Of a DNA stretch of 64,000 nt, positions 29,623-57,584 are shown one piece after another (position 1 is the stretch's first letter; every line of letters begins with the position of its first letter). Source of the stretch: an uncultured Clostridia bacterium (lineage in GTDB: Bacteria > Bacillota > Clostridia > Christensenellales > Borkfalkiaceae); contig CAKQRD010000002.1 of the NCBI GenBank assembly GCA_934271275.1, forward strand, positions 99,925 to 163,924, given 5' to 3'. The notes below the pieces were generated by a model, which was not told the DNA's origin, ran no database searches, and was given only the letters and a program-made list of their open reading frames with translations. The position numbers and the translations under genes were made by a program.

Positions 29623-29715
29623 TGGCGGAGAAAGAGGGATTTGAACCCTCGCTACGGTTTAAGCCATACTACTCCCTTAGCAGGGGAGCCCCTTGAGCCA
29701 CTTGGGTATTTCTCC
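29623..29715 (-). tRNA. tRNA-Ser(GCT), class II with a long variable arm.
   Basis: Reverse complement GGAGAAATACCCAAGTGGCTCAAGGGGCTCCCCTGCTAAGGGAG...GAGGGTTCAAATCCCTCTTTCTCCGCCA. Anticodon loop CTGCTAA; encoded CCA. Confidence 0.85.
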
Positions 29716-29962
29716 GCACCGTCAAGTTGTTACGCTTTACCTCTCCCCGCGTTCCCGCTTTAATAAAGCGTTTCGCGATTTTCCATTCAGCGTCTACGAT
29801 ATATTATCATAATTCTTTCCTTTTGTCAAAGCATTTAACTAATCTTTTTCATATTTTTTCTCCGTTTTGCGGTTTTTGCTCCTGTCTCCCCCGTCTCGTC
29901 CTGCCGTTTACGACGATATTCGCCAAAACTTCACGTCTGCAAAGCGTCGCCACCCGCTCGCG

Positions 29963-31075
29963 CTATCTCCCGTTATCAAAGTCCGGTTCGTCGATATAAT
30001 CAATATAGTCGGTCTCGTCAAAGTCGTTAAACTTATCAAAATCGTCAATCTCCGTTATTCCGAACGAATTTTCCTCTTCGTTACCTTCGGGGCGTTTTGC
30101 CCGTCCTTCCACGATCTTACCTTTGAGCGACGCGTAAGTGTCCGAGCGAATTTTTATCGAAGCAACGGGCGCACCGTCTATAAGCTTTATCAGATACCCC
30201 TCGCTTTTATAGCCCTCTTTACTATACGAAACAACCTTTCTCTCTCCCTCGTATAGTTCGGGAAACTCGCCGTCGTCATCCGCAATGACCTCTTCTTCGG
30301 GTGCGGCGATTTTATCCGTTATCACGCTTTTTCGCACGAATTTTTCTTTCATCGGCTCGCCGTACAAAGTTATCCTTATAGTGGATTCGTTTGCCGTCGC
30401 CTTGATTATCACGGGGTTATGCGTATCGTTGATAAATCTTAAATCCGCCGACCCCGAGTTCACCATAGCGTCGAATGACGGCGCGATATAAGAAACGGGC
30501 AGGCTGTGCGAATGGTATTCGGTTATTTTTAGTCCCGAAAGCAACGCGGCGTTATAGAGCGTCGTTGAAACCTGACAGACTCCCCCGCCGACTCCGTCCA
30601 CGAATTTGCCGCCGACGATTATTTTCGCCTTTTTGTATCCGCGGGCTTCCGTCCTTGCTCCAACCGTATCGTTAAACGAAAATTCGCCGCCGACGTCTAT
30701 AAACGTATTGTCGAGAGCATTCGCCGCCACCGAAATATTGTTTTTGCGTTCAGGTGAGGAAGTAGTGTACGAGGTATAAAACTCCGCGCGTTTAACTATT
30801 TTCTGCGGGCGAAGGTCATAAAAAGGCATTTCCGCGTAAACGACCGCCGCCCCGCCCGTACTTCCCGCGCCGCCGTCACAAAAATTTTTTATCGCAAAAG
30901 ACGGAATCAAGATAAACGCCGCAAAAAACGAGCATGACAGAACGACGAGGGCGAAAATCGGCGCAGTTATCGCCGTCGAAACCGACTTCCTTCCGCGCGT
31001 TGATTTATGTTCGGCGAGTTCGGAAAACTTATTTGTTTTTTTCGTGACAGAATTGTTTTTCATTATATAAAGCAA
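29963..31075 (-). CDS. VanW-family protein (YoaR-like).
   Basis: N-terminal TM anchor; VanW core with GGGVCQVSTTLYNAALLSGL; acidic C-terminal tail. Confidence 0.78.
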   Translation of the reverse strand: MLYIMKNNSVTKKTNKFSELAEHKSTRGRKSVSTAITAPIFALVVLSCSFFAAFILIPSFAIKNFCDGGAGSTGGAAVVYAEMPFYDLRPQKIVKRAEFYTSYTTSSPERKNNISVAANALDNTFIDVGGEFSFNDTVGARTEARGYKKAKIIVGGKFVDGVGGGVCQVSTTLYNAALLSGLKITEYHSHSLPVSYIAPSFDAMVNSGSADLRFINDTHNPVIIKATANESTIRITLYGEPMKEKFVRKSVITDKIAAPEEEVIADDDGEFPELYEGERKVVSYSKEGYKSEGYLIKLIDGAPVASIKIRSDTYASLKGKIVEGRAKRPEGNEEENSFGITEIDDFDKFNDFDETDYIDYIDEPDFDNGR

Positions 31076-31231
31076 GTATGCGTATTTTTATCGGAAAAAA
31101 TTCTTAATCGGATATGCAAAAAGCTTTTTCGCCGAAAACTTTGCCGCGGCTGAAAATAAGTTTTACGAGAAGCGTTAAAAATACTTGCAAAACTCCTCCC
31201 GATATGATAGAATAAGAAAAGTATTCGGGAT

Positions 31232-31308
31232 GGAGACGTAGCTCAGTCGGTTAGAGCGCTCGCTTCACATGCGAGAGGTCCAGGGTTCGAGTCCCTGCGC
31301 CTCCACCA
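31232..31308 (+). tRNA. tRNA-Val(CAC).
   Basis: GGAGACG-TA-GCTC-AGTCGGTTA-GAGC-G-CTCGC-TTCACAT-GCGAG-AGGTC-CAGGG-TTCGAGT-CCCTG-CGCCTCC-A-CCA. There is one A-C mismatch at positions 5-68 in the acceptor stem. Confidence 0.7.
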
Positions 31309-31349
31309 CTTCTTATGAACGCGGCTTATGCGGCGCATCGTAACCTTTG

Positions 31350-31426
<77 letters not shown>

Positions 31427-31480
31427 AAGCGTATCGGTCGAAAGGCTTTGCCCTTTCGACCGATATAATTAAAACGATAA

Positions 31481-31599
31481 ATTTTTATATTTTTTGCTTC
31501 CATAGTTAAATGGATATGTCGCAATGCGCGACGGCGTTCGCAAGCTTTGCTTGCTCGGCTAAACGGAACCGTTACATCCATTTAACAAAACAAGTTTCG
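31481..31599 (+). ncRNA. Partial duplication of the tRNA-Arg promoter and 5' part (first 22 nt, GCTTCCATAGTTAAATGGATAT) fused to a roughly 70-nt cluster of three hairpins closed by an 11-bp stem, giving a cloverleaf-like fold.
   Basis: 31481-31517 is near-identical to 31600-31637. The closing stem pairs GTTAAATGGAT with ATCCATTTAAC. Internal hairpins are gtcgc-aatgc-gcgac, gcaagc-ttt-gcttgc and aacgg-aa-ccgtt. Confidence 0.45.
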
Positions 31600-31615
31600 A
31601 CTTTTTATATTTTTC

Positions 31616-31690
31616 GCTTCCATAGTTAAATGGATATAACGGCCCCCTCCTAAGGGGCAGTTGTGGGTTCGATTCCCGCTGGGAGTACCA
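31616..31690 (+). tRNA. tRNA-Arg(CCT).
   Basis: GCTTCCA-TA-GTTA-AATGGATA-TAAC-G-GCCCC-CTCCTAA-GGGGC-AGTT-GTGGG-TTCGATT-CCCGC-TGGGAGT-A-CCA. Confidence 0.78.
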
Positions 31691-31984: not shown

Positions 31985-32353
31985 ATGATTAAAAGAGGCG
32001 AATTATATTATGCGGACCTCAGTCCCGTAGTAGGAAGCGAACAAGGCGGAGTAAGACCCATTCTCATCGTTCAGAACGATACGGGTAACAAATACAGCCC
32101 GACGATTATTGCCGCGGCGGTTACAAGCCGTCTTACAAAAGCCAAACTTCCGACTCATATAGAAATCAACGCAAACGATTTCGGGCTGAACAAGGATTCC
32201 GTAATTCTGCTCGAACAAATCCGAACGCTCGATAAACGAAGGCTGAAAGAACGCATAGGCGAACTTTCCCCCGTTACTATGCGAAAAGTGAACGCGGCTC
32301 TTCTCGTAAGCCTCGGATTTACGCAGACAAACGGACATAGTGTAACCGTATAA
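31985..32353 (+). CDS. mazF: MazF/EndoA (PemK-family) endoribonuclease toxin, with no adjacent antitoxin gene.
   Basis: Near-colinear with B. subtilis EndoA: [44 protein letters not shown]...KLPTHIEI...[16 protein letters not shown]. Confidence 0.85.
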
Positions 32354-34605: not shown

Positions 34606-35805
34606 TTATTTACGGTCGTTTCGCCCGCTTTTTTCTTTATAATCTTTATTTACGTTTTTATCGTTATTTTCGTTGTTTCCGTTTCTTTCGTCGTTCGCGG
34701 TTAAGCCCGTCTCGTAAAGTCTTTTCGCAAGCCGCTCGGCGCGGGAAAAGTCCTTCATCGCCGCCTTGAAAAAGCTTGCCATCTCCTTTTCTGTACAGTT
34801 ACGCCGCAAAAGTTCGGCGTTAAGAAGATATTTGAGAGTAGCCGAAGAAGGCAACTTCCTCTCCTCGCCGTTTTGCACCGTTCCCGCCGAATCGTCGCCG
34901 CCAGACAAAAACTCATTTTTAAGCTCGGATTTCGCAAGCTTTATCGCATTTTCGCCGTCTTTTTCTATCAGTTCGTCTATACCTCCGAGAGTGTTTATCC
35001 CGAGGTATTTGAGCTGAACGAGATACGGATCGGAAGGCGATTCGGTAACGCCCGCAAGCCCGCATGCCGCCGCGAGTCTTTCGGTAAACGCGCGCATAGC
35101 CGCGTTCTGCTTCATATAGATGGCAAGGGTGGTCAAATCCGCTTCCATATCGCCCGCCGTGCCGTTGCCTATTTTTTCCTCTATTTCTTCGCCGTAACGC
35201 TTAACGCCGTCGCGGATTTCGCAGAACATTTTATCAGCGATTTCCAGAAGTCCCGCCACGCGCGAAAATTCTCTTACCACGTTTTTAGGCGTGCCGAACG
35301 CGCTTTTATAACCCATATCGTGCTGCATTTCCGCCCAGGCATGTTGCAGGAGGGAGCGTATTTGCAGCTCGAAACGTATTTCGCAAAGCTCGTTTTCGTA
35401 CCCGGCGTTTTTCGGGAGCGAAAAGACGAAATGCAACGAAAGATACCCGAACGCATCGGGACTCAAAACCGCGCGTTTATCCACCGAATTTTCTTCGTCC
35501 ACGACGAAAAGTTTGCTCGCCTCCGCCGCGAATTTATCCACGTCGTCGGAGAAAAAGCAGATAACGCGCGCGCCGTAAACGTCCGTAATATCGGTAAGCG
35601 TGCGATATTTATCGCCCTTTCTCGTCAGTTTGCCTTTAAGGCTCTCCTCCGATTTTACTCGCCCTTCGATTGCCATAACGCGCACGCCGGTATTACTTGC
35701 GACTTCGCCGAGAAGTTTTTCGACTATTTCGCCGAGCCGTTCGTACCTCGCCCTTTTTTCGCGATATTCTTTTATTATTTTTTCGGAAACGTCCATAATT
35801 TTCAA
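34606..35805 (-). CDS. RelA/SpoT-family (p)ppGpp synthetase domain protein (SAS-like N-domain plus an uncharacterised C-terminal domain of about 190 aa).
   Basis: Nucleotidyltransferase block ...AIEGRVKSEESLKGKL...DITDVYGARVICFFSDDVDKF...LQIRSLLQHAWAEMQHD. Confidence 0.68.
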   Translation of the reverse strand: MKIMDVSEKIIKEYREKRARYERLGEIVEKLLGEVASNTGVRVMAIEGRVKSEESLKGKLTRKGDKYRTLTDITDVYGARVICFFSDDVDKFAAEASKLFVVDEENSVDKRAVLSPDAFGYLSLHFVFSLPKNAGYENELCEIRFELQIRSLLQHAWAEMQHDMGYKSAFGTPKNVVREFSRVAGLLEIADKMFCEIRDGVKRYGEEIEEKIGNGTAGDMEADLTTLAIYMKQNAAMRAFTERLAAACGLAGVTESPSDPYLVQLKYLGINTLGGIDELIEKDGENAIKLAKSELKNEFLSGGDDSAGTVQNGEERKLPSSATLKYLLNAELLRRNCTEKEMASFFKAAMKDFSRAERLAKRLYETGLTANDERNGNNENNDKNVNKDYKEKSGRNDRK

Positions 35806-36329
35806 GCCTTTCCGCCGAGAGATTTTTTAAGCTCCTCTATCGCGGCGGGAATTTCGGGATTAAAATCCGAATAATATTTCAGACTTTCTTCTATATATCT
35901 TTTGCGAAAGCTTTCGTCGCAGAAAAACGCGCTCTTTAAGTTATGCAATCTGTCCGCGCCTTTAACCGCAAACGCAACGGGGTTTTTGCGGATATTGCGG
36001 ACGTATTCGTCCATAGAAAGTCCCTCGCGTTTTGTTAAAAGCTTTACCGCTTCCAACACGGTTTCGCCGCCCAAAGCCGCTATTTCCGCTTCGGCAGCGT
36101 TCGTATCCTCCAAGAGGTCGTGAAAGAGGGCGGTAAGAACGTATACCTCGCCGTAACCTTTTTCTTTCAAATACTGTGCGACCGCTATCGGGTGCGTTAT
36201 ATAAGGCTCGCCGCCCGCACGGAATTGCCCCGCGTGTTTTTTTGCGGCATATTCCTTTGCCGCGGCATAACGCTCTCTTTCGTCGTTAGATTTCTGCATA
36301 AAACTACCGTGAACCATTGTTCTTAACAT
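35802..36329 (-). CDS. HD-domain small alarmone hydrolase-like protein (SpoT/Mesh1-type HD).
   Basis: YITHPIAVA...HDLLEDT motifs of the Rel/SpoT hydrolase domain. It overlaps the synthetase gene by 4 nt. Confidence 0.62.
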   Translation of the reverse strand: MLRTMVHGSFMQKSNDERERYAAAKEYAAKKHAGQFRAGGEPYITHPIAVAQYLKEKGYGEVYVLTALFHDLLEDTNAAEAEIAALGGETVLEAVKLLTKREGLSMDEYVRNIRKNPVAFAVKGADRLHNLKSAFFCDESFRKRYIEESLKYYSDFNPEIPAAIEELKKSLGGKA

Positions 36330-36477
36330 ATTCTACCACATAAAAAATAAAGTTGCAACCCCATACGGACAACGAAAAAGGATAAAACGTAAAAAAAATT
36401 AAAGTTTTTTGAAAATACGGCGCGTAAACGCTTGTAAAAAGAAAAACTATTTGATAGAATATATCCGTTAAATATTT

Positions 36478-36553
36478 AGGGGTATCGCCAAGCGGTAAGG
36501 CAACGGACTCTGACTCCGTCACTTCGGTGGTTCGAATCCATCTACCCCTGCCA
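36478..36553 (+). tRNA. tRNA-Gln(CTG).
   Basis: AGGGGTATCGCCAAGCGGTAAGGCAACGGACTCTGACTCCGT...GGTTCGAATCC...TACCCCTGCCA. Near-colinear with E. coli tRNA-Gln(CUG). Confidence 0.8.
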
Positions 36554-36556
36554 CTG

Positions 36557-36594
36557 AAATCGTAGATTTTATCTACGATTTCTTTGTTTTTTTT
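36557..36594 (+). terminator. Rho-independent terminator after tRNA-Gln.
   Basis: aaatcgtagat-ttt-atctacgattt followed by T8. Confidence 0.55.
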
Positions 36595-36829
36595 CGACAT
36601 ATTTTCTTAAATCGAAAATCATTGAAAAAATAGCGTTTTTAGGGGGTATTGGGAAGTTTTTGGGAAGTAAAACCGATTTATAAATTATATTTTACCTTTT
36701 CCGCTTAGTCCTGCGTAGCGATTATCGCGAAGCAGTAAGGTTATTATCCTTTACAACTCAAACGACAGAGAAACTAAACGCTTAACTAAAAAACAATTAA
36801 AAGAAATAGAGAGTTGTAAAAATCTATAA

Positions 36830-36876
36830 GAGATAAAAGAAAACTCGTCTGAACTTAAAGAGTTCAAACGAGTTTC
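36830..36876 (-). terminator. Rho-independent terminator of the ATPase-DUF2971 operon.
   Basis: aaactcgtctgaact-taaag-agttcaaacgagttt with a T-run on the minus strand. Confidence 0.5.
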
Positions 36877-37047
36877 ACTTGGCAAGCCCGCTCAAAACAG
36901 ATACATTTTCTATTTTGAAAGACAGATTTGAACTCATGTACATACTTAATGAAACGATCCGTAATACACAAATTTCCGCTCACATATTCTTTATTTTTAG
37001 TATCATACAAGAAGATTTTTTGCAAGCGTTTTGAAAGAACAAGATAC

Positions 37048-38172
37048 TTATGTACTATATTCTTCATATAAATGCCCCGTTCCGATTCGTGTTCTTTTTC
37101 TGATTGTAATGCTCCAATTTTTTTCTTTTGCCAAATTTAATAATTTAATTCCGTTTTCCGAGTTCATTATTCTTTCATCTAAAATAAGACCAGACACAAT
37201 ATCCGCAAATATTTTATTTTTCTCATCAAGATTAAAAAGAAAAACTCGCCATTCTTTTTCTTCTTTCCAGCGACTCAGCTTTGTAACCATGCAGGTTAAT
37301 GTTTGCATATTCGCTCTTTTTAGTAGTTCATCATCTTTTTTGCCACCCAAAAAATATTGCAACATATCAGAAAAAGAGTATTCATCGAAGTTATCTTTAT
37401 ACACGACCTTATACAGGCTAATTAACAATTTTTTTTTGTCAAATGGTAAGTCTTTTACTTTATTATAATCGTATTCAATACAAAACCCCTTATTACTGTT
37501 TGCATAATAGGCCCACATTGTATCCGAATCATAAGCTTCCGACATAGAGAAAATGTAAATATCTTTCCTGCTCTCATTATTAAAATTTATCAATGCACTC
37601 AGTGGCTTTTTTAAGTTTTCGGCGTTATTTCTAATCTCATTTTCCACCATTTCCAAAATCTTATTAATATAATTTTCTGAAGTTCGCCTATCGATGCCAA
37701 TTTGAGAAAAAACATTTAACGCCTTCTCTCTATCAAGCTCGTAACTTTCATAGTTAACACAACCCATCAACATTTGATATGCTTCTTTATCATAAGGACT
37801 CAAAAAAATCTGTCGTTGTTTGAAACTTTCTCTCACCCATGCTTCAAGATAAAGCCACGGCTTTTTCAGAAAAAGTTCCATTTGTTTATTTACATCTTTT
37901 TCCAAATCAAAATTTAATGTTGAATCAAAATCGTCATTTAAAGTATTTGCTCTTGCCATATATAAATAACCATTTTTTAAGCCATCATAGGCATAGTCAA
38001 ACGATTTGCCTTCGATAGAACGATATTTATATAATTTCCCATTATTCGGCAAAAAATCTATTATTCTCGTTATAATGTCATCTACGTTACTTTCGGACAA
38101 GTTTTCTAATGTAGTCGTGCCAAACATTAAATCCAAATGTTCTTGATATAATTGTTCTTTATTCATAAGCAA
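37048..38172 (-). CDS. DUF2971-family protein (second gene of the candidate defense cassette).
   Basis: Core block IYIFSMSEAYDSDTMWAYYANSNKGFCIEYDYNK matches the DUF2971 signature (F-S-hS...MW.YA...KG.Ch.a). 374 aa, about 30% GC. Confidence 0.6.
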   Translation of the reverse strand: MLMNKEQLYQEHLDLMFGTTTLENLSESNVDDIITRIIDFLPNNGKLYKYRSIEGKSFDYAYDGLKNGYLYMARANTLNDDFDSTLNFDLEKDVNKQMELFLKKPWLYLEAWVRESFKQRQIFLSPYDKEAYQMLMGCVNYESYELDREKALNVFSQIGIDRRTSENYINKILEMVENEIRNNAENLKKPLSALINFNNESRKDIYIFSMSEAYDSDTMWAYYANSNKGFCIEYDYNKVKDLPFDKKKLLISLYKVVYKDNFDEYSFSDMLQYFLGGKKDDELLKRANMQTLTCMVTKLSRWKEEKEWRVFLFNLDEKNKIFADIVSGLILDERIMNSENGIKLLNLAKEKNWSITIRKRTRIGTGHLYEEYST

Positions 38173-38247
38173 TTCTCTAAATCAAACAATATTTTCTTTA
38201 TATGTTAGTTAAAAGAGATTTAATTGTTTATTCTTAACGAAAATATT

Positions 38248-40788
38248 TTATTTATTAAATATAGCATCCAATGCCTTAAGCTCGGTATAGCATTCATTTA
38301 AAATTTCTATTGTTGGTTCAATCCTTGCTTGTGGCGAAGAACTATGTGCCGGAATAAATCTGCAGACCTTAGAAAATAGAGCAGAAATTCTACAACCACT
38401 ATTTTTCAAAGCGTCTGTGTTTATGTTTTCGAATTTTGTCATTTTTATATCTGGCTCATATCTATTTATGGTCCCATTAAAAACTTTTTCTGCGACCATA
38501 AGCTCTAAAGCACTTCTCATATAACTGAAGCAATCATAAATATGATTCTTGTTTTCTCTTAAATCCGCTTTATTGGAGACTAAAGAATTCACTTTAGATT
38601 TGTAATATTTATATGTTTCAATGTTTGGAAATTCATATTTAATTTGCCCTGTATAAGGTTTTCCATCTATATTGCCTCTTTCAAGACAAATAAAAGTGTG
38701 CTCTTCATTGTCAAGGATTTCCTTTGCATATTTAGATAAAAAACCTACAAAAACCAAATTGTGTGTTAATATTATAATTTGTTTTTTTTGTGATAACTGA
38801 ACTAAAACTCGGGCAACTGTTTCCATTCTTTGCAAATCCAAACTATTAACTGGATCATCCAAAACTAAAACATTATCCTTGTCCTCTATTAAGTTTTCTG
38901 CTATAAAATGAGACAAAGCTATTACTTTTTGTTCGCCCTCGCTCAATATACTACTTAAATCATATTTTTTATCAAGAAAAGTTTGTTTTAATGAAAGTTT
39001 TGATGCGACAATGTTGGGGGCAAAGTTTATATTTTTAGGCGCTTCAAGACGAACTAATTGTTCCTCTAAGCAAAGGGTAAACTTTTCTTTGTATTGGGTC
39101 GATAATATTTTTGATTGAATAGCAGACAAACTACTATTAGAGATTTTAGATAAAGGATTTAGGTTTAGTTGTTCGTTTATATTTGAAATAATAGCTTCTA
39201 CGTTCTTTAATAAAATTGCGATACTGTTATATTCATTTAACTGAGCTCGATTATCACTTATCTCTTTCTCAATATTATCTTTTTGTTTATTAAGTATACT
39301 AATTTCTTCAATATACTTCTGTAAAGTCGCGTCTAATATGCTTTTGAAAAATCTTAAGTCACAAGAAGAATCAAAGTCTCCTAAATTTGAAAGAGGGTTA
39401 TAATCTAATCTAACTAATTTTTGTAGAATTGTTGTAACTTTAATTACTTCTTTATAAAAATCACTATCTTCATTTTCAAAAAAAGGTACTATTTGTCCTA
39501 TTTCGCTTATACAACTTTTTATTTTATCTTTAAATTTGTGTATTTTGTCAACTATTATGTTGATTTTTGCAGAGTTATCATTAGTAATAAATCTTGAATA
39601 AGACGATAGCAAGTCTTTTGCCTCTTCATTAATTGCTTGTCCACAAAAAATACAAGTTTCTTCTTCTTCAAAACTAATTCCATTCCTCGACTTAAGGAAT
39701 TTATCAGCTACAAGTAAAAACTCCTTAAATAGTTCCTTTTGTTTTTCCTCCAAATTAAGTCCCGTTACAAAATCTTCAATCTTTACATTACCAGATATTA
39801 ATTCGCTTGCTTTAATTAATTCACTTTTATATTCTTGCCAAAATTCTTTATTTTGTAATCCTGAAGATAGAAAAATTAAATTACTTAATTCTTCTATTTT
39901 GCTCTTTAATTTTTGTTTATTGCGTATTTGGAGTATGATTACATCTGTATTTAACATTGATGTTTTTTTGTTTAATTCTTCTAACTTTGCCTCAACAACA
40001 TCTAAATTATAACTGTTATTATTAATAAAGTCTTCGATATTTTTCCGAGCGTTTCCTACTCTCATAATCGAATCAATTAGTAAGTGAACTTTCGTTCCAT
40101 CAATGATCCCAAACAAGGTCATATCAGACTTTAATTGTGCTATACGTTCTTTTGCTTTTTTTGCCAAATCGCTTGTTGCCACATTAATTATGTTAAAAAA
40201 ATTAAAGTCTTGGGGCATAAAAAGAATTTCTTTTTTATTTCCCAAAGAAAACTTAACACAATTAGAGTTGAATATTTTTAAATTAAGATTACGACAATTG
40301 GTTTTACTCCAAACGAAAGTTTCTTCTGTATTCCCATGTGTAATAGTAACATCCGCTGATTGCAATCCTATATCATCTTCTAAAAGATTGGTGTAAATTG
40401 TATTTTCCGAATCCAAAGAATTACCCATTGATTTAACAATTCTTACATACCCAGTTTTTCCCGTACCATTTGGACCATAAACGACTGTTAAGTTATTGTT
40501 AAAATTCATTTCCTGATTATTTAAGAGAAGGTTAACGTTTTTAACATTCTTTATAGAATTTAAGAATAATTTCGATGAAGGTTCACTTTCTAATTTCTTA
40601 AATATTATAGCAGGAAAAGAATTTGATATGTAGCAATTGATAATATTATCTAATTCTTCTTGTGAAATTTCTTCATATTTAAAGCAGAGATTTAATAGAT
40701 ATTGTGCCCAATATCCATTCGAATTTGCCCATGTTATTAATTTATCATATATATTTTCCATCATACTTCCCTTTGTACTTCTTATCAA
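38248..40788 (-). CDS. Rad50/RloC-like ABC-type ATPase with a coiled-coil insert, a CxxC hook-like motif, an N-terminal extra domain and a C-terminal extra domain of about 160 aa.
   Basis: Walker A VVYGPNGTGKTGY at about residue 95; a helical insert of about 500 residues containing ETCIFCGQ; ABC signature LSEGEQK; Walker B/D-loop VLVLDDPVNSLD; H-loop ILTHN. The C-terminal domain has a RSALE...H arrangement. Confidence 0.7.
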   Translation of the reverse strand: MIRSTKGSMMENIYDKLITWANSNGYWAQYLLNLCFKYEEISQEELDNIINCYISNSFPAIIFKKLESEPSSKLFLNSIKNVKNVNLLLNNQEMNFNNNLTVVYGPNGTGKTGYVRIVKSMGNSLDSENTIYTNLLEDDIGLQSADVTITHGNTEETFVWSKTNCRNLNLKIFNSNCVKFSLGNKKEILFMPQDFNFFNIINVATSDLAKKAKERIAQLKSDMTLFGIIDGTKVHLLIDSIMRVGNARKNIEDFINNNSYNLDVVEAKLEELNKKTSMLNTDVIILQIRNKQKLKSKIEELSNLIFLSSGLQNKEFWQEYKSELIKASELISGNVKIEDFVTGLNLEEKQKELFKEFLLVADKFLKSRNGISFEEEETCIFCGQAINEEAKDLLSSYSRFITNDNSAKINIIVDKIHKFKDKIKSCISEIGQIVPFFENEDSDFYKEVIKVTTILQKLVRLDYNPLSNLGDFDSSCDLRFFKSILDATLQKYIEEISILNKQKDNIEKEISDNRAQLNEYNSIAILLKNVEAIISNINEQLNLNPLSKISNSSLSAIQSKILSTQYKEKFTLCLEEQLVRLEAPKNINFAPNIVASKLSLKQTFLDKKYDLSSILSEGEQKVIALSHFIAENLIEDKDNVLVLDDPVNSLDLQRMETVARVLVQLSQKKQIIILTHNLVFVGFLSKYAKEILDNEEHTFICLERGNIDGKPYTGQIKYEFPNIETYKYYKSKVNSLVSNKADLRENKNHIYDCFSYMRSALELMVAEKVFNGTINRYEPDIKMTKFENINTDALKNSGCRISALFSKVCRFIPAHSSSPQARIEPTIEILNECYTELKALDAIFNK

Positions 40789-40805
40789 TTTTATTTATTG
40801 TCAAA

Positions 40806-40827
40806 ATAGCAAAATTAATATTGCTAT
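40806..40827. promoter_or_regulatory. Palindrome ATAGCAA-AATTAAT-ATTGCTAT just upstream of the ATPase gene; candidate operator.
   Basis: A perfect 7-bp inverted repeat lying 18 nt upstream of the ATPase start codon. Confidence 0.3.
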
Positions 40828-41085
40828 GTTTTTAATAATTGAATTCGGCAAAAAATTACGCTGTTTAATTTTACGCGTGGAGACATATCACAGTATTCCA
40901 AATTAGTTCATTCATTTGTGACATAGTAAATTTTCTTATCAATTACAGTGCGATTAAGTAAAATCACTTTTTTTATTATTATAGCATATCTTATCAAATA
41001 TTACAAGTCGTTTTTATCACCACACCCAAGAGCAAAAAAAGTTTATTTGCATTATTTTTGAAACTTTTACATATAACAAATTTTT

Positions 41086-42723
41086 CTACACTTCCTGCTC
41101 TACTTCATAGCCGCCGATGAAAATTACTTTTATTTTTTCTTTTGACTCGACTATTACCGCCTTGATTATTTGGCGGACAAGTGTATCGTCGTATATCAGC
41201 GTCCGATTCTTCAACCCGTCGATTAAGTCCATTATTTCGGCTATACGCGATTGATTATTTTTATCCTTTTGATGCTGCTCCGCCAGCCTGTCTAAATCTG
41301 ACTGTAATTTATTTTTCTCTGCCAATAATTCTTCTGCTTTCTTTTCGTCGAACGACTCTATCGTATCCGCGGAAATCGTATTAAACAACTCGTTTATTTC
41401 TTTCTCTATGGTTGCAAGTCTTAACTTAATTTCTATATCTTCACCTTCACACTTCGTGCAGCTAATACCGTTTTCTATATGCGTTTTTAGATTTTTAAGT
41501 AACTGCGGATCTTGCTGTGCAAATTTTTGTATAGCGTTTACTATCGCTGTCTGTATTCGATTTTCTTCTAATGTGGGCGAGTTATGGCAATATTTCTTAC
41601 CATAGTCCAATCGCTTTACGCAACGCCACACTATCTGTTTTCTTCCGTGTGCCGTCCATGTACATCGTCTGTATGGCGTATGGCATTCTCCGCAGATAAG
41701 CAACTCCGTCAGAGCGTACTTACTCGAATACTTACCCTGCTCTGTTTTTGTACCGATTTCTTTAATCTTTTTCTTTCCGATTCTTCTTGCGAGTTCTTCT
41801 TGAACTCTGCCAAACGTTTCGGCATCGATTATAGCGGGATGACTGTTTTCAACGTAATATTTAGGGCGTTCACCCCTGTTTTTACGAACTTCTTTAGTTA
41901 AACAGTCTACCGTAAACGTTTTGTTTATAATAGCGTCGCCCTTATATTTTTCGTTCGAAAGTATCGAACGAATCGTTGACGTACTCCATTCTTTTTTCCC
42001 CGCCGGGGACAGCCTCTGTTCGTTTTGTAGTCTCTCAGCAATTTGTTTCAAACTATCGCCGACAAGGAATCTATCGTATATCATTCTTACCGTTTCAGCC
42101 TGCTCTTCGTCTATTTCGGGCTTATCGTCCGCACCTTTACGATAGCCGAGAAAGTTTTTGTAAGAAAATACGACTTTCCCTTCTTTCGCACTTTGCAGTT
42201 TACCCCATTTTACGTTAGCGCTTATATTTTCCGATTCGCTCTGCGCTATCGTTCCGTATATCGAGATATAGAATTCGGCATCCGACTTTATACTGTGTAT
42301 CCCTTGCTCTTCGAAAAACACATCAACCCCTAACGCTTTCAGCATTCGCGTATAATGCAGGCAGTCTACCGTATTCCTTGCAAATCTTGAAATCGACTTC
42401 ACTAAAATCATATCGATTTTCTTATTTTTGCAGAGTTTTATCATCTTGTTGAACTCATCGCGTTTCAGCACGCTCGTTCCCGTAATGCCCTTGTCGGCAA
42501 AAATGCCCACCATTTGCCATTCGGGATTGGAATTGATTTTCTCGGTATAGAATTTCTTTTGTACTTCGTAACTGTTTAGTTGTTCTTCCTGCTTTGTCGA
42601 AACTCGACAATAAGCCGCAACACGAATTCGGCGGTACGATTGAAATGTGTTTTCTTGCACATTTATTGCTTCGTGAATCAGTCGTACTTTCTTTTCTCTT
42701 GTGTTTTCAGCTATGTTTTCCAT
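41086..42723 (-). CDS. Large serine recombinase (resolvase catalytic domain, recombinase domain and zinc-ribbon).
   Basis: VAAYCRVSTKQEEQ catalytic Ser motif; recombinase domain begins ...FLGY; Cys-rich zinc beta-ribbon (CGECHTPYRRC...C); C-terminal coiled coil. Confidence 0.85.
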   Translation of the reverse strand: MENIAENTREKKVRLIHEAINVQENTFQSYRRIRVAAYCRVSTKQEEQLNSYEVQKKFYTEKINSNPEWQMVGIFADKGITGTSVLKRDEFNKMIKLCKNKKIDMILVKSISRFARNTVDCLHYTRMLKALGVDVFFEEQGIHSIKSDAEFYISIYGTIAQSESENISANVKWGKLQSAKEGKVVFSYKNFLGYRKGADDKPEIDEEQAETVRMIYDRFLVGDSLKQIAERLQNEQRLSPAGKKEWSTSTIRSILSNEKYKGDAIINKTFTVDCLTKEVRKNRGERPKYYVENSHPAIIDAETFGRVQEELARRIGKKKIKEIGTKTEQGKYSSKYALTELLICGECHTPYRRCTWTAHGRKQIVWRCVKRLDYGKKYCHNSPTLEENRIQTAIVNAIQKFAQQDPQLLKNLKTHIENGISCTKCEGEDIEIKLRLATIEKEINELFNTISADTIESFDEKKAEELLAEKNKLQSDLDRLAEQHQKDKNNQSRIAEIMDLIDGLKNRTLIYDDTLVRQIIKAVIVESKEKIKVIFIGGYEVEQEV

Positions 42724-42724
42724 T

Positions 42725-43573
42725 TTAGCTCCTTATCTCTTGCCCGTTTATCAGAACGATTGCGACATCGCCGTCGGGATAAAGTTTTATAGATTCCGCA
42801 ATCGAGCTTAACAATTTGGGTGAAAATTTCATCTGTAACGGGGTATTTTTAAGAGTATTTTTTATTCTCATAGTCTTACCCACGTTTTTATCAACGCTTT
42901 TATATAGTTCATAAAAATAGCTGTTTAACTTATTGCGTATACTCTCTTCGTTACTGCGTGGATTTACATACAGGTTTTCTATTTCATTTTCGAGCAATAC
43001 AAGTTTAGTGTTGTCTCCTTTTTCTTGCGAAGTATACTCGATGTCATTGTTTTTTTCGATTAACATGTTCACGATATCTATAAGACAATTTATAAGTGCT
43101 TCGTCTTTAATCGTTATTATTTTTCGGCATTCCTTATTACTACAATACCATTTTTCGGGATCCTTTTTCCGACAATCACATTTTCTTTTCATGATACTGC
43201 CGCACACAGGGCATTTTATAGGCACGCCTATGCGATGCACTTCTTTATCGAGAAAATCTTCCTTTATCGTTCGCTTTTGACTATTCAAAGACTGCGCGGC
43301 ATAAAATACCGACTTATCTATCAGCGGCGGGAATCTATCCGCTCCTATATACCGTTCATCCTTCACAACCCTTAGAACCCGTGACTTGTTCCATTCATAC
43401 CTGTTCGGCACATATTCGATTCGCCTTTTCGTCAGGTCGTTTGCTATTGCCAAAACGGTTTCGCGTTTCAGATACCTTGTATAGATTTCAACGACTATCT
43501 TGGATTCCTTTTCTTCTATAACTTTTTGACCGTTTTCGACCTTGTACCCGAACAGCATATTTCGTTTTTTCAT
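42725..43573 (-). CDS. Serine-recombinase C-terminal fragment (recombinase domain plus zinc-ribbon only; no catalytic domain).
   Basis: Starts MKKRNMLFGYKVENG..., which is the start of the recombinase domain. CPVCGS...C zinc ribbon. Confidence 0.65.
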   Translation of the reverse strand: MKKRNMLFGYKVENGQKVIEEKESKIVVEIYTRYLKRETVLAIANDLTKRRIEYVPNRYEWNKSRVLRVVKDERYIGADRFPPLIDKSVFYAAQSLNSQKRTIKEDFLDKEVHRIGVPIKCPVCGSIMKRKCDCRKKDPEKWYCSNKECRKIITIKDEALINCLIDIVNMLIEKNNDIEYTSQEKGDNTKLVLLENEIENLYVNPRSNEESIRNKLNSYFYELYKSVDKNVGKTMRIKNTLKNTPLQMKFSPKLLSSIAESIKLYPDGDVAIVLINGQEIRS

Positions 43574-45105
43574 TTACTAACCTCTTCTTCGATTTTTAGT
43601 CCGCCAATTAAGCAGAAGGTTATAACGTTATCGGCGCCTATGATTATCTTTTCAACCATCGAATTAAATGTCTCCTCGTTAAACTCCGAGATAGATGGTG
43701 TATTTTGTATTATTTCATTTAGCTCACTTATTTCACCAACCTGATTATCTCGTCCTTCCCCGATCAATTTTTTCCGCGCGGCCCTTAATTCTGCCAGTTT
43801 CGCATTAATTTCGGAAGCCCGCTCATTATAGTCCGCAACGGATAACGAACCATTCGTATATAACCTTGTTATTACGAGATTTTTTGCGCTTAAATTTGCC
43901 ACTTTTATGTCTATTTCTTTGATTTTTTCATCAATGTCCGATACTGATTCATTCAAACGATTAATCTCGAAGATATATTTCTCTATTATTTCGGTTCTAT
44001 ATGCCTTCAGTGTATTGAAAACATTTATGAATGCATTACAAACTGCGTTTTCGCTTATTCTTTTACTTTTACAATGCGAGACGCCTGTTGATGTCCGCAT
44101 ACAATTCCATGATACTTTTTGCCCGTTAATATTTTCTCGTCTATATACACCACCGCATTCGGCACAGTAAATTTTATCGGATAACGGATATTTAATCTTT
44201 GTACCAATCGTTCTGCCCTTTTCCTTCCGAAGTTGTTGCACTTTTTCAAACGTTTCTTTCGATATAATCGGTATATTGCTGTTTTCAACGTAGTATTTAG
44301 GCTTTTGCCCCACGTTTTTAATCTTCTTATGCGGAAATATATCGGTTGTACATTTCTTTTGCAATACCGCGTCACCCATATAACGTTCGTTGTTAAAAAT
44401 ATACAATAAATTGCTTTTATACCACTTTTTATCATTATATCGTTTCTTTATATTGTTATCGTTCAGAATATCGACGATTTGTTGCATTCCGTATCCATGA
44501 AGATACAGATCGTATATTTCTCTTACAATTACAGCTTCCTCTTCATCAACCTGCAATTCGCCGTCTACAAACTTAAACCCGAACGGTGTTCGGGTACAGT
44601 TATACTCACCCGATTCCATTCGTTTTTTATAACTCCAACGTAAATTCCCCGATATGGTTTCGCTTTCTTTCTGCGCTGCCATACCGGGGAACGTTACTAT
44701 CATTTCTATATTCAGTTTATCAGTATCTATTTTCTGTTCTTCAAAATATACGCTTACGCCTACGCTTTTCAACAATCGTAACACTGTGAGCAATTCTTCC
44801 GTGTTTCTTGCGAACCGTGACACGGATTTAGTTATTATTTTATCTATTTTTCCGCGCTTGCAATCGTCAATCATACGAAGAAACTCGTCGCGTTTTTTCA
44901 TTTCAGTACCGCTCAAGCCCTCGTCGAAATACATATCTACAAGCTCGCATTCGGGACGCTCATTGAAAAATTCTTTATAATACCGTATTTGCGCAGCAAA
45001 GGAGTGCAACTGCTCTAACGATTTACTAGATACTCTCCCGTAAGCAGCCCATCGCTCTTTTCTTTCGGATTGTATAGTTTTTGGCGTTATATCAGTTATT
45101 TGCAT
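43570..45105 (-). CDS. Large serine recombinase (full length).
   Basis: WAAYGRVSSKSLEQ catalytic motif; recombinase domain; CAECGGVYRR...C zinc ribbon. The start was moved to the Met of MQITDITPK. Confidence 0.82.
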   Translation of the reverse strand: MQITDITPKTIQSERKERWAAYGRVSSKSLEQLHSFAAQIRYYKEFFNERPECELVDMYFDEGLSGTEMKKRDEFLRMIDDCKRGKIDKIITKSVSRFARNTEELLTVLRLLKSVGVSVYFEEQKIDTDKLNIEMIVTFPGMAAQKESETISGNLRWSYKKRMESGEYNCTRTPFGFKFVDGELQVDEEEAVIVREIYDLYLHGYGMQQIVDILNDNNIKKRYNDKKWYKSNLLYIFNNERYMGDAVLQKKCTTDIFPHKKIKNVGQKPKYYVENSNIPIISKETFEKVQQLRKEKGRTIGTKIKYPLSDKIYCAECGGVYRRENINGQKVSWNCMRTSTGVSHCKSKRISENAVCNAFINVFNTLKAYRTEIIEKYIFEINRLNESVSDIDEKIKEIDIKVANLSAKNLVITRLYTNGSLSVADYNERASEINAKLAELRAARKKLIGEGRDNQVGEISELNEIIQNTPSISEFNEETFNSMVEKIIIGADNVITFCLIGGLKIEEEVSK

Positions 45106-45263
45106 ATTTCCTCCTTTCGGCAACACAAACAATATCATATCATGGCTTTTCAGTCCAGCGTTTAGCAATATCTTTTTTGTGCAACCTTATTTTCTACCTT
45201 TTATACGAAAAACGGCGTTTTATCTATTAAATTTAGACAAAACGCCGCTCTTTAAGCTTCCGG

Positions 45264-45701: not shown

Positions 45702-45874
45702 TGTTTTTCTCCTTATACATTTTTTGTTAATCTACTATTATCCGCTCACACTTATAATGCTTCGCGGACAGTCGGACAATTCTTTTATACTCATCTTCCG
45801 TTATTAAACCGGAGCGTAACAACAGCCGTAACATATTTATACAATAATAGAACGCGGCGTTATTCTTATCCTGT

Positions 45875-46240
45875 TCAGCCGCCATCTTTATCTCCCGCTT
45901 GGTTTAAGCCAAGGCTTACGCTTATCGCTTCGTTTATCTCTTTTACGGTCGCTCCGTCGAGTTCTCCGACGTACTTTATAAGCCGACTTTTATCTATCGT
46001 CCGTATCTGTTCCAGCAAGGCAAGCGATTTCCTCTCTACCCCGCAGTTAATCACCTCGACATGCGTCGGAAGCTTTGCTTTTTCCTCTTTACTCGTTATC
46101 GCAGCCACTATCGTCGTCGGACTATGTTTGTTGCCCGTATCGTTCTGTATAACGAGTACAGGTCGTATCCCGCCCTGTTCGCTGCCTCTTACGGGATTTA
46201 AATCCGCATAATATATTTCGTTTCTCTTTATTTCTTTCAT
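45875..46240 (-). CDS. mazF: MazF/EndoA-family endoribonuclease toxin; second copy, island-borne, with no adjacent antitoxin.
   Basis: EIYYADLNPVRGSEQGGIRPVLVIQNDTGNKHSPTTIVAAITS...KLPTHVEV...LLEQIRTIDKSRL. About 60% identical to the copy at 31985. Confidence 0.8.
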   Translation of the reverse strand: MKEIKRNEIYYADLNPVRGSEQGGIRPVLVIQNDTGNKHSPTTIVAAITSKEEKAKLPTHVEVINCGVERKSLALLEQIRTIDKSRLIKYVGELDGATVKEINEAISVSLGLNQAGDKDGG

Positions 46241-56090: not shown

Positions 56091-57584
56091 CTATTCCGCA
56101 ACAAAGCATAAAGGAATAAATTCACGCGCATATCCGTTTGAAATAGATACCTCGATAAGCACTTCGTTAACGGCGTTTACCGTTTCACCGGCTTTCAGCT
56201 TTATCGTTTTCGGCTCTGAAATACAGTCGGGCGTAAACGCCGTCCAGTGCGGAGCCAAAATATCGAATTTGGTCTTATCCGCAGTCAGTTCTTCGGGAAG
56301 CCATAACTTTATCCTTACGGTATGCGGTAAATTTCCATACGTCTTGATATTGTTCAAAATTCTTATTTCAAGCGTTCTTTCTTGTCCCGCAGTTATCCCG
56401 AATCCCTCTTTACATCCGATAATCGCCGTCACGCAACCGACCTTTTTCTGCATCGTGTTCTCTTTGAGAGTAAAAAGCGAAGCTCTCATAAGATCCGTTT
56501 CTTCGCTCTTTCCGTAAGGCAAGAAAAATTTCTTTATTTCTCCCTCCTCGCATTCCGATCTTTCGCCAAATTCCACCGTTACGGCATTCATTCTGTTAAA
56601 TCTTAAAACCGAAGGCGCAAGCGACGCTACCTTTTCCGTCAGTTCGACGCAGTTCTTTACACGAGGGAAAGACACGCACGCGTTTATCGTTCCCGTGACT
56701 ATCTCGTCGCCTATATACTCACGCCAATCCTTCGGTGTTCCCTCTGTCCCATGCATAAGTCCGAATATCGCGCCAACCGTACCTGCGGTGCAATCCGTAT
56801 CGTCTCCGCAATTAAGCGCGGTAAGCATTGACTTTTTGAAATCGCCTTCGCCGTACAACAATCCTATAACGACGTACCCGATATTAGACGGCGCCTGAAA
56901 CCACCCGTCCCCTATATCGGCGTTCATTTGCTGAACGGCGTTTCTAGTCTCGATGGTATCTATCCCCTTCCCGTAGCTTTCCAGAACGAATTTTACCGTT
57001 TTTGCCGTCCTGCTATCCGCAGGTATTTTGGACAAGCCTATTTCTATAAGACTTTTTAGGTCGGATACGACGAACGCCGCGCTTTCAAGAGCCGCGACGA
57101 AAGCCGCCGAATGCGTTCCCTCACCGTAGCCGTGATCTACCTTTGCGTCCTCTATCGCAAATCTTACCGCAAGGTCCGGATACGCAGGGGCAAGAGTTGC
57201 CCATACTTCCGTTCTTATCCACGCACCGTTAGAATGCTTCCAAGGGTTTTGAAGTTCGCCACAAAGCGGAGGCATCACTCCCTTTTCCATATTCCTTCTC
57301 GCTATGCCGTATTCGTTCCAATACCCCGTTATGAAAGAAAGCCAGTATTCGCCCAACACCTCGGAAGTTATATTTCTCGGTCCCTCAAACTCCACGGCGT
57401 GCAGCCATACAAGTTGTAAATCGAGGTCGTCGTTAGGCAAAACCTCGCCTTTCTTCGTAGCGAATCCCTTTACGTCGAGAATATCGCGTTTGCTTTCGTA
57501 CGGCGCGCCGATAGTTCCGCCCATATTTTTCCCGAGCCAACAAGCATATACCTTATCCTTGTATTCTTTGAAATTAAGTTTCAT
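56091..57584 (-). CDS. ADP-ribosylglycohydrolase-family protein with a C-terminal beta-rich extension.
   Basis: ACWLGKNMGGTIG N-terminal motif and the downstream GDDTDCTAGTVGAIFG are hallmarks of the ARH/DraG fold. Confidence 0.68.
   Translation of the reverse strand: MKLNFKEYKDKVYACWLGKNMGGTIGAPYESKRDILDVKGFATKKGEVLPNDDLDLQLVWLHAVEFEGPRNITSEVLGEYWLSFITGYWNEYGIARRNMEKGVMPPLCGELQNPWKHSNGAWIRTEVWATLAPAYPDLAVRFAIEDAKVDHGYGEGTHSAAFVAALESAAFVVSDLKSLIEIGLSKIPADSRTAKTVKFVLESYGKGIDTIETRNAVQQMNADIGDGWFQAPSNIGYVVIGLLYGEGDFKKSMLTALNCGDDTDCTAGTVGAIFGLMHGTEGTPKDWREYIGDEIVTGTINACVSFPRVKNCVELTEKVASLAPSVLRFNRMNAVTVEFGERSECEEGEIKKFFLPYGKSEETDLMRASLFTLKENTMQKKVGCVTAIIGCKEGFGITAGQERTLEIRILNNIKTYGNLPHTVRIKLWLPEELTADKTKFDILAPHWTAFTPDCISEPKTIKLKAGETVNAVNEVLIEVSISNGYAREFIPLCFVAE

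Follow-up and report, generated by a model that had tools for sequence, protein, structure and literature searches.

An RloC-like ATPase gene and a DUF2971 gene in the cargo slot of a clostridial serine-recombinase islet: probably two single-gene abortive-infection modules

The window analysed here is a 64,000-nucleotide stretch of an uncultured Clostridia bacterium of the Borkfalkiaceae (contig CAKQRD010000002.1, positions 99,925 to 163,924). Near its middle lie two adjacent minus-strand genes, one encoding an RloC-like ABC ATPase and the other a DUF2971 protein, which a first-pass annotation had proposed to form a two-gene anti-phage defence cassette. The present analysis favours a different reading, namely that the two genes are probably autonomous single-gene abortive-infection (Abi) modules, placed side by side in the cassette-exchanging cargo slot of a serine-recombinase islet. 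This reading draws directly on the integrity of both genes, on the motifs, folds and family membership of their products, on the lack of co-occurrence of the two families and on the swaps seen in related islets.

Co-occurrence of the two families and exchange in related islets

The neighbourhoods of both families were compared in 83 loci with homologues of the ATPase (22–98% identity) and in 79 metagenome loci with homologues of the DUF2971 protein. A match to the DUF2971 hidden Markov model (HMM) was found in one of the 83 ATPase loci (L040), where it is weak and lies on the opposite strand. No ATPase HMM match was found in the 79 DUF2971 loci, 40 of which extend 2.6 kb or more upstream. Clustering of the neighbours of the ATPase gave no conserved partner; the largest clusters are serine recombinases and HsdM (9 of 83 loci each), followed by HsdR and HsdS (7 each). 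Homologues at 56–81% identity adjoin restriction–modification (R-M) methyltransferases, type I HsdR or type IIG R-M, GmrSD or Fic genes, and never a DUF2971 gene. The pair itself was found on several metagenome contigs, all of the same lineage, and the window locus is also present on a 149-kb metagenome scaffold. The conserved adjacency with variable flanks by which a two-gene system might be recognized is therefore not seen: the families do not co-occur elsewhere, and the related islets L001, L163, L164 and L165 each carry one of the genes without the other.

L163 and L164 match the window over two segments, 45252→41087 and 38180→36862, and carry gajA and gajB in the slot that is held by the ATPase gene in the window. 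L165 likewise keeps the recombinases and the DUF2971 gene, with a different Gabija subtype in the ATPase slot. The DUF2971 proteins of these relatives are 92–93% identical to that of the window (93% for L163 and L164). Similarity to the Gabija-carrying relatives begins at 38180 (L163 and L164) or 38214 (L165), and the variable slot extends from the stop codon of the recombinase (41086) to a point 14–48 nt ahead of the ATG of the DUF2971 gene. In L163 and L165, with Gabija in the slot, the leader that precedes the ATPase gene is absent. L001 retains the recombinase, an ATPase that is 98% identical in amino-acid sequence and the first 180 nt of the DUF2971 gene, followed by a deletion of ~1.04 kb.

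Nucleotide identity between the window and L001 is 84% in the gene for the 545-residue recombinase, 97.8% in the leader, 98.8% in the ATPase gene and 90–92% in the intergenic region and the 5' end of the DUF2971 gene. The leader and ATPase gene are thus 97.8–98.8% identical within a backbone that is 84–92% identical, from which it follows that the ATPase cassette moved recently as a unit with its promoter, excluding the DUF2971 gene. Compared with L163, the three recombinase genes are 95% (545 residues), 92% (282 residues) and 85% (532 residues) identical. As judged from these sequence comparisons, the DUF2971 gene is part of the islet backbone and the ATPase gene is exchangeable cargo. The pair was already present in the ancestor common to the window and L001.

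The two proteins, their genomic contexts and their relation to known systems

The ATPase matches the Pfam families AAA_13, AAA_21 and SMC_N and the PADLOC PDC-S06 model PDLC04888 (E-value of 1.1e-113; residues 4–836 against profile positions 10–849 of 851), and the PDC-S06 match recurs in all 37 sampled homologues. Together with the motifs, these matches bear out its earlier description as a Rad50/RloC-like ABC ATPase. Residue invariance was assessed in a first alignment of 20 homologues and a second of 37 (20–31% identity). Invariant in all 37 are the Walker A residues G97, N99, G102 and K103 (GPNGTGKTG in the window protein, residues 96–104), the ABC signature LSEGEQ at 607–612 (LSEGEQK at 607–613 in the window), the Walker B residues D636 and D637 (VLVLDDPVNSLD, residues 632–643), T667 and the switch His H668. 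The same holds for C371, C374 and Q376, where the CxxC motif reads C371-I-F-C374, and for R750, E754, R768 and H807 of the C-terminal domain. The SMC_N match stretches over residues 80–670 for profile positions 14–199 of 220, which indicates that the predicted ATPase head is split by an insert. In a profile search of the Protein Data Bank (PDB), Rad50 heads match the ATPase and the Rad50 zinc-hook fragment 6zff matches at the CxxC region (residues 380–448; E-value of 1.5e-3).

The C-terminal domain carries the triad pattern R750-x3-E754-x52-H807. Its AlphaFold2 model is closest to HEPN toxins, with generic helical bundles scoring nearly as high. Scanned by itself, the domain has no Pfam match, and there was no match at the sequence level to the nuclease domain of PrrC or RloC. 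An exhaustive profile search with the domain returned 540 clusters, all of this architecture and nearly all of 820–890 residues. Some matches of 394–458 residues, the size of PrrC, were rejected as N-terminally truncated fragments that lack Walker A. In architecture and motif pattern the ATPase is thus RloC-like and a member of PDC-S06, and its putative nuclease domain is a possible homologue of that of RloC.

The assignment of the second protein to DUF2971 (PF11185) was upheld, with a score of 42.4 bits against a cutoff of 22. The protein also matches the PADLOC PDC-S31 model PDLC04990 (E-value of 3.2e-28; residues 148–350 against profile positions 58–238 of 259), so both proteins fit family models in Pfam and PADLOC. 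Its AlphaFold2 model (mean predicted local distance difference test score, pLDDT, of 89.2) has a Tpt1/DarT-like ADP-ribosyltransferase (ART) fold. Across 34 homologues the segments PNxGxxYKYR (40–49), GFCxEY (227–232) and E303-x-E305-W-R are invariant. The ExE of ART motif III (E303-K-E305) is intact and the Tyr of motif II is conserved, Y221 and Y232 both being invariant in the 34 homologues. The ART-like fold and the catalytic-type motifs are in agreement with the published assignment of the DUF2971 family to the DarT-like ARTs (PMC12522546). The family also matches the PHROG family phrog_1762 of unknown function (E-value of 1.4e-28). Some homologues of ~500 residues (P0152, P0153, P0157 and P0161) have an N-terminal NUDIX domain, a fusion that fits ADP-ribose- or NAD-related chemistry or a built-in antidote. 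A 67-residue open reading frame (ORF; 36864–37067, minus strand) that overlaps the DUF2971 stop codon was considered as an antitoxin gene and rejected, as 1-nt indels relative to L163 and L165 break its frame.

Among the DUF2971 loci with informative flanks, 40 of 70 have the gene inside a type I R-M operon, between hsdS and hsdR. The order is hsdM-(rhuM)-(HAD)-hsdS-DUF2971-hsdR-ygjP, with gaps that are mostly overlapping or near zero and often with overlapping stop and start codons. Such loci fall among L088–L155, for example L091 (2964–12943), L102 (3108–12976) and L112 (1334–10057). The R-M-embedded homologues are more distant, with identities to the window protein of no more than ~57%. Within the clade that is at least 60% identical, none of the seven informative loci is R-M-embedded; the neighbours are Gabija, PDC-S01, a PDC-S35 TIR protein or unknowns. 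Three Gabija subtypes directly adjoin close DUF2971 homologues (L163, 4756–7937; L165, 644–4701; L166, 7713–11563), upstream of the DUF2971 gene in two of these loci and downstream in one. In L166–L168 a PDC-S01 (AAA_14/DUF4143) gene stands ahead of the DUF2971 gene.

Several known systems resemble one or the other protein. RloC has been defined by Arg-X3-Glu-X36-52-His in proteins of 658–897 residues, with R-M linkage in 8 of 73 cases (PMC2610378). The window ATPase shares with it the Walker A, signature, Walker B/D-loop and switch His of the ABC head and, by prediction, a long insert centred on the CxxC (a putative zinc hook). Its triad spacing of x52 is the largest that the published range allows, its 838 residues lie within the published lengths and R-M linkage is similarly rare (~9 of 83 ATPase loci). 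Unlike RloC, it has a Ser after the triad His and an extra N-terminal region of ~70 residues that includes the invariant W19, and PADLOC files its family separately as PDC-S06. RloC from Geobacillus kaustophilus and Acinetobacter baylyi is a wobble-nucleotide-excising anticodon nuclease, an activity that we only infer for the window protein. PrrC, the anticodon nuclease linked to EcoprrI, has the succession that is predicted for the window protein, an ABC ATPase and then a HEPN-type nuclease domain with an R-x3-E...H triad. However, PrrC lacks the coiled-coil/hook insert and is always found within type I R-M, whereas no hsd genes were found in the 64-kb window. A search of the rest of the window for type I R-M or Gabija genes that might act as partners in trans gave none at E < 1e-8.

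The first-pass annotation could match the pair to no named system, but each gene proves to be a catalogued single-gene candidate, PDC-S06 or PDC-S31 (Payne et al., bioRxiv 10.1101/2024.01.29.577857). Embedding in BREX, DISARM or type I R-M was the criterion for such candidates (bioRxiv 10.1101/2024.01.29.577857), and our survey reproduces this type of embedding for the DUF2971 loci. The window genes differ in that they lie in the cargo slot of a serine-recombinase islet and not inside another system. Aristaios is a validated single-gene DUF2971 Abi system of lactococcal plasmids with a predicted ART fold (PMC11381338). The window protein resembles it in having PF11185, a predicted ART-like fold and a single-gene organization. 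The lengths differ (372 residues against 316 for Aristaios), and the relationship is at the domain level only. A tblastn search of PLSDB with the DUF2971 protein gave three weak DUF2971 matches, none of them lactococcal. DarT, the DNA ADP-ribosyltransferase toxin of DarTG, is a further relative in setting, as DarTG2 shares the hsdS–hsdR slot and the downstream M48/YgjP peptidase gene with most DUF2971 homologues; unlike in DarTG, no gene for a DarG macrodomain antitoxin lies beside the DUF2971 gene, and the DUF2971 protein has large helical inserts. Finally, the ATPase is similar to LmuB of Lamassu (E-value of 1.5e-12), AriA of PARIS (3e-08) and mad3 (3e-12) in the ATPase core only. In contrast to Lamassu, PARIS and Gabija-type systems it has its own fused nuclease-like domain, and DUF2971 is a component of none of these systems.

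The defence-like setting noted at first pass finds support in the PADLOC candidate models and in the neighbours in related loci (R-M, Gabija, PDC-S01, PDC-S35 and GmrSD). Because these models match and defence genes neighbour both families in related loci, both are probably anti-phage defence genes. Neither protein had phage matches (for DUF2971, tblastn against 50,697 phage genomes), and plasmid matches of the ATPase reached only ~22% identity ('AAA family ATPase'); a phage or plasmid origin was rejected on these grounds.

Gene models, transcription signals and islet boundaries

Both ORFs of the first-pass annotation are present and intact on the minus strand (Table 1). Their true start codons are probably ATGs and not the TTGs first assigned. 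For the ATPase the start at 40764 is chosen because the exact 838-residue product is found in public assemblies and contigs. For the DUF2971 protein the start at 38166 is chosen because the N-terminus MNKEQLYQEH is conserved, with Y7 and H10 present in at least 90% of the 34 homologues. With these starts the intergenic gap becomes 81 nt in place of the 75 nt given before. The AT-rich character of the islet (~30% GC) was also borne out, with GC contents of 0.282 for the ATPase coding sequence, 0.25 for its leader, 0.307 for the DUF2971 gene and 0.288 for the whole cassette; the host value of ~50% was not, as the host and flanks measure 0.45–0.46. The recombinase genes have intermediate values of 0.37–0.41. 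The reported placement of the cassette between a tRNA-Gln gene and a serine recombinase array was confirmed by the tRNA and Pfam domain calls.

Table 1. Features of the islet and its borders in the window (strand in the third column).
Feature	Position	Strand	Details
tRNA-Gln(ctg)	36478–36553	+	ARAGORN; Rfam RF00005, 57.3 bits; ~310 nt outside islet end
Hairpin called a terminator at first pass	36840–36876	-	16-pair stem, weak T-tail
Conserved terminal block	36880–36948	-	~70 nt, non-coding; common to the window and all four relatives, with differing flanks
DUF2971 protein, ADP-ribosyltransferase-like, PDC-S31 family	37048–38166	-	372 aa; Pfam, PADLOC, AlphaFold2
DUF2971 ORF as first listed	37048–38172	-	374 aa from TTG; probable ATG start at 38166 gives 372 aa
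Intergenic spacer with module junction	38167–38247	-	81 nt; GC 0.185; no terminator-like site
RloC-like ABC ATPase with putative HEPN-type nuclease domain, PDC-S06 family	38248–40764	-	838 aa; Pfam, PADLOC, motifs
ATPase ORF as first listed	38248–40788	-	846 aa from TTG; probable ATG start at 40764 gives 838 aa
Leader/promoter region moving with the ATPase cassette	40765–41085	-	Promoter-like site; 97.8% identity to L001
Serine-recombinase array	41086–45168	-	545 aa, 282 aa (Recombinase domain only), 532 aa; Pfam, PHROG
Serine recombinase, 545 aa	41086–42723	-	Pfam Resolvase, Recombinase and Zn_ribbon_recom assigned across the array
Recombinase-domain-only ORF, 282 aa	42725–43573	-	Pfam
Serine recombinase, 532 aa	43570–45168	-	Pfam
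Resolvase N-terminal fragment, 145 aa	45264–45701	-	Pfam

A single strong promoter-like site was found, at 41006–40978 (TTGTAA-17-TATAAT, with an extended TG), ahead of the ATPase gene. No terminator-like site was found between the two genes. Given the shared strand, the lack of such a site and the position of the sole strong promoter-like site, co-transcription of the two genes is plausible. The terminator that had been placed at 36830–36876 is present as a hairpin. It is weaker than described: the hairpin (minus strand, 36876–36840) has a weak T-tail (CTTTTATCTC), terminator-like sites are no commoner than in shuffled sequence (2 against 1.9 ± 1.5), and the match of related islets to the window breaks off at the hairpin or just ahead of it. 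An Rfam scan of 36300–41300 (E-value of at most 1) returned the tRNA only, and in the 320-nt leader of the ATPase gene neither a riboswitch nor any known RNA. The sole ORF in this leader encodes 17 residues (40870–40923, minus strand). In L171 (4325–4435) and L172 (884–994) a 36-residue ORF ends 7 nt ahead of the ATPase homologue. A leader peptide or regulator upstream of the ATPase is possible.

At the end of the islet nearer the tRNA, homology to L165 and L001 ends at about 36878–36890 and that to L163 and L164 at 36862, inside the hairpin stem, after which the flanks differ. The terminal block at 36880–36948 is probably an attachment, recognition or end site of the recombinase, to judge from this pattern of conservation. 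Repeats that might mark both ends were limited to short matches of 75–90% identity and of chance quality. The far end, at ~45252, is approximate and taken from the homology to L163. To the right of the recombinases chromosomal sugar-catabolism genes resume, and the islet is therefore only ~8.5–9 kb long. The recombinase array matches the PHROG integrase family phrog_95. An ORF with the Recombinase domain alone (277–282 residues, without the catalytic resolvase domain) is kept between full-length recombinases in the window (42725–43573, minus strand), L163 (2125–2973) and L174 (5685–6518), and looks maintained rather than a recent pseudogene.

Several other genes of the window were recorded. 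A PemK/MazF-like toxin gene (45875–46240, minus strand) and a SHOCT_2 ORF (45727–45885) lie beside the 145-residue resolvase fragment, and a second PemK-like gene is at 31985–32353 (plus strand); these genes were called in L174, where the window locus recurs. Just left of the tRNA-Gln gene, an HD_4 hydrolase (35802–36329) and a RelA_SpoT synthetase-domain protein (34606–35805) are encoded by a tight minus-strand pair, possibly a toxSAS-like module of small alarmone synthetase and hydrolase. A tRNA cluster (Ser-gct, Val-cac, Ala-ggc and Arg-cct) is found at 29623–31690, 5–7 kb left of the islet. A gene for a 497-residue ADP-ribosylglycohydrolase (56091–57584, minus strand) sits among clustered genes of sugar catabolism (UxuA, melibiase, SDR); it is 18 kb away from the ART-like gene and probably unrelated to it.

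Readings of the locus and their implications

On the favoured reading, two independent modules lie at the cargo end of the islet, which is integrated ~0.3 kb from the tRNA-Gln gene. The first module (41085→38248) comprises its own promoter-like site and leader and encodes an RloC-type protein with a Rad50-like ABC head, a predicted hook insert and, at the C-terminus, a putative nuclease domain of HEPN type. If the protein works as RloC does, its ATPase and hook region would keep the nuclease inactive until it is triggered, either by phage-induced DNA damage or DNA ends or by loss of restriction; tRNA anticodon loops would then be cut and translation would stop. The second module (~38180→36880) belongs to the islet backbone. 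Its DUF2971 protein, in which the ART fold is of the Tpt1/DarT kind and the ExE is intact, may respond to infection by NAD+-dependent ADP-ribosylation of nucleic acid, giving an Abi phenotype as for Aristaios. The adjacency of the genes and their probable co-transcription would then reflect cassette exchange in the variable stretch that separates the stop codon of the recombinase from the DUF2971 gene, and not functional coupling.

Several points weigh against this reading. The C-terminal domain of the ATPase is linked to RloC and PrrC by motif pattern and fold only, and its Ser follows the triad His instead of preceding it. The PADLOC PrrC model is matched by 11 of the 37 ATPase family members (best E-value of 4.7e-11), in the ATPase part only (profile positions 147–265 of 372). 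For PDC-S06 and PDC-S31 we found in the literature only PADLOC calls from genome surveys and no validation; on our assessment both are guilt-by-embedding candidates. The DUF2971 gene is always directly beside another defence operon, which could mean that it depends on a partner. The two genes may also interact functionally at this locus, because they are co-directional, no terminator lies between them and the pair is older than the split between the window and L001 lineages.

A dependence of DUF2971 on its neighbours can be stated more precisely. The protein would be a PrrC-type second-line effector, co-transcribed with a primary DNA-targeting system that keeps it latent, and would fire once a phage disables this system; the guard partner would be type I R-M for most homologues and Gabija or the RloC-like ATPase in the window clade. 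The hsdS–DUF2971–hsdR arrangement, with its tight gaps, is consistent with this proposal, as the same slot holds prrC in EcoprrI and DarTG2 in enteropathogenic Escherichia coli (EPEC; PMC12255303). The direct abutment of the close clade on Gabija, in three subtypes and two orders, or on the ATPase agrees with it too, and no antitoxin-like partner gene is apparent. However, the partners are too varied for one specific protein–protein interface, and the hsdS–hsdR gap is a recognized defence-gene hotspot (PMC12255303) that gathers unrelated genes. Moreover, Aristaios functions as a single gene, and L085–L087 show neither R-M nor Gabija nearby (in short upstream flanks). We regard this role as unlikely. 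The wider proposal that DUF2971 ART-like proteins are widespread 'piggy-back' second-line effectors, always co-transcribed with a DNA-targeting system and released when a phage neutralizes it, is similarly doubtful.

It is also conceivable, and in our view improbable, that DUF2971 serves the islet itself, whether as a counter-defence enzyme or as a toxin for addiction or stabilization. The gene is a constant part of the backbone and stands last in the islet, beside the conserved terminal block; its divergence (90–93% nucleotide identity) resembles that of the recombinase (84–95% for the 545-residue gene); the family has a match in PHROG; and a PemK toxin gene stands at the opposite side of the array. 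Against such a role, most of the family resides in type I R-M operons of the chromosome, away from any recombinase, the search of the phage genomes gave no match, no antitoxin gene is evident and an anti-phage gene that encodes this domain has been validated. A true two-gene system, with the SMC/ABC-type ATPase as the sensor of infection and the DUF2971 protein as the effector, would suit the common strand, the short gap free of terminator-like sites, the single promoter-like site, the recurrence of the pair on several contigs of its lineage and the shared ancestry with L001, but is very improbable: the pair does not co-occur beyond this lineage, islet relatives keep one gene without the other, the ATPase has an effector of its own in the HEPN-like domain with its invariant R/E/H triad, its cassette was recently exchanged without DUF2971, and PADLOC treats each gene as a single-gene candidate.

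The reading as two autonomous modules carries a caution for genome scans, in which adjacent, co-directional, low-GC genes of the 'sensor ATPase plus small effector' kind can be separate single-gene modules. Both proteins are new members of known, largely unvalidated candidate families. The related islets form a natural series on one backbone, with the RloC-like cassette, two Gabija subtypes and a DUF2971 deletion, and with module boundaries mapped to tens of bases, and this series supplies ready constructs for PDC-S06 and PDC-S31. Were the doubtful 'piggy-back' proposal true, the window would show such an effector re-partnered through cassette exchange. Further, DUF2971 lies between hsdS and hsdR in most loci, and if this placement is due to coupling and not to a hotspot, the PrrC paradigm would come to include an ADP-ribosyltransferase.

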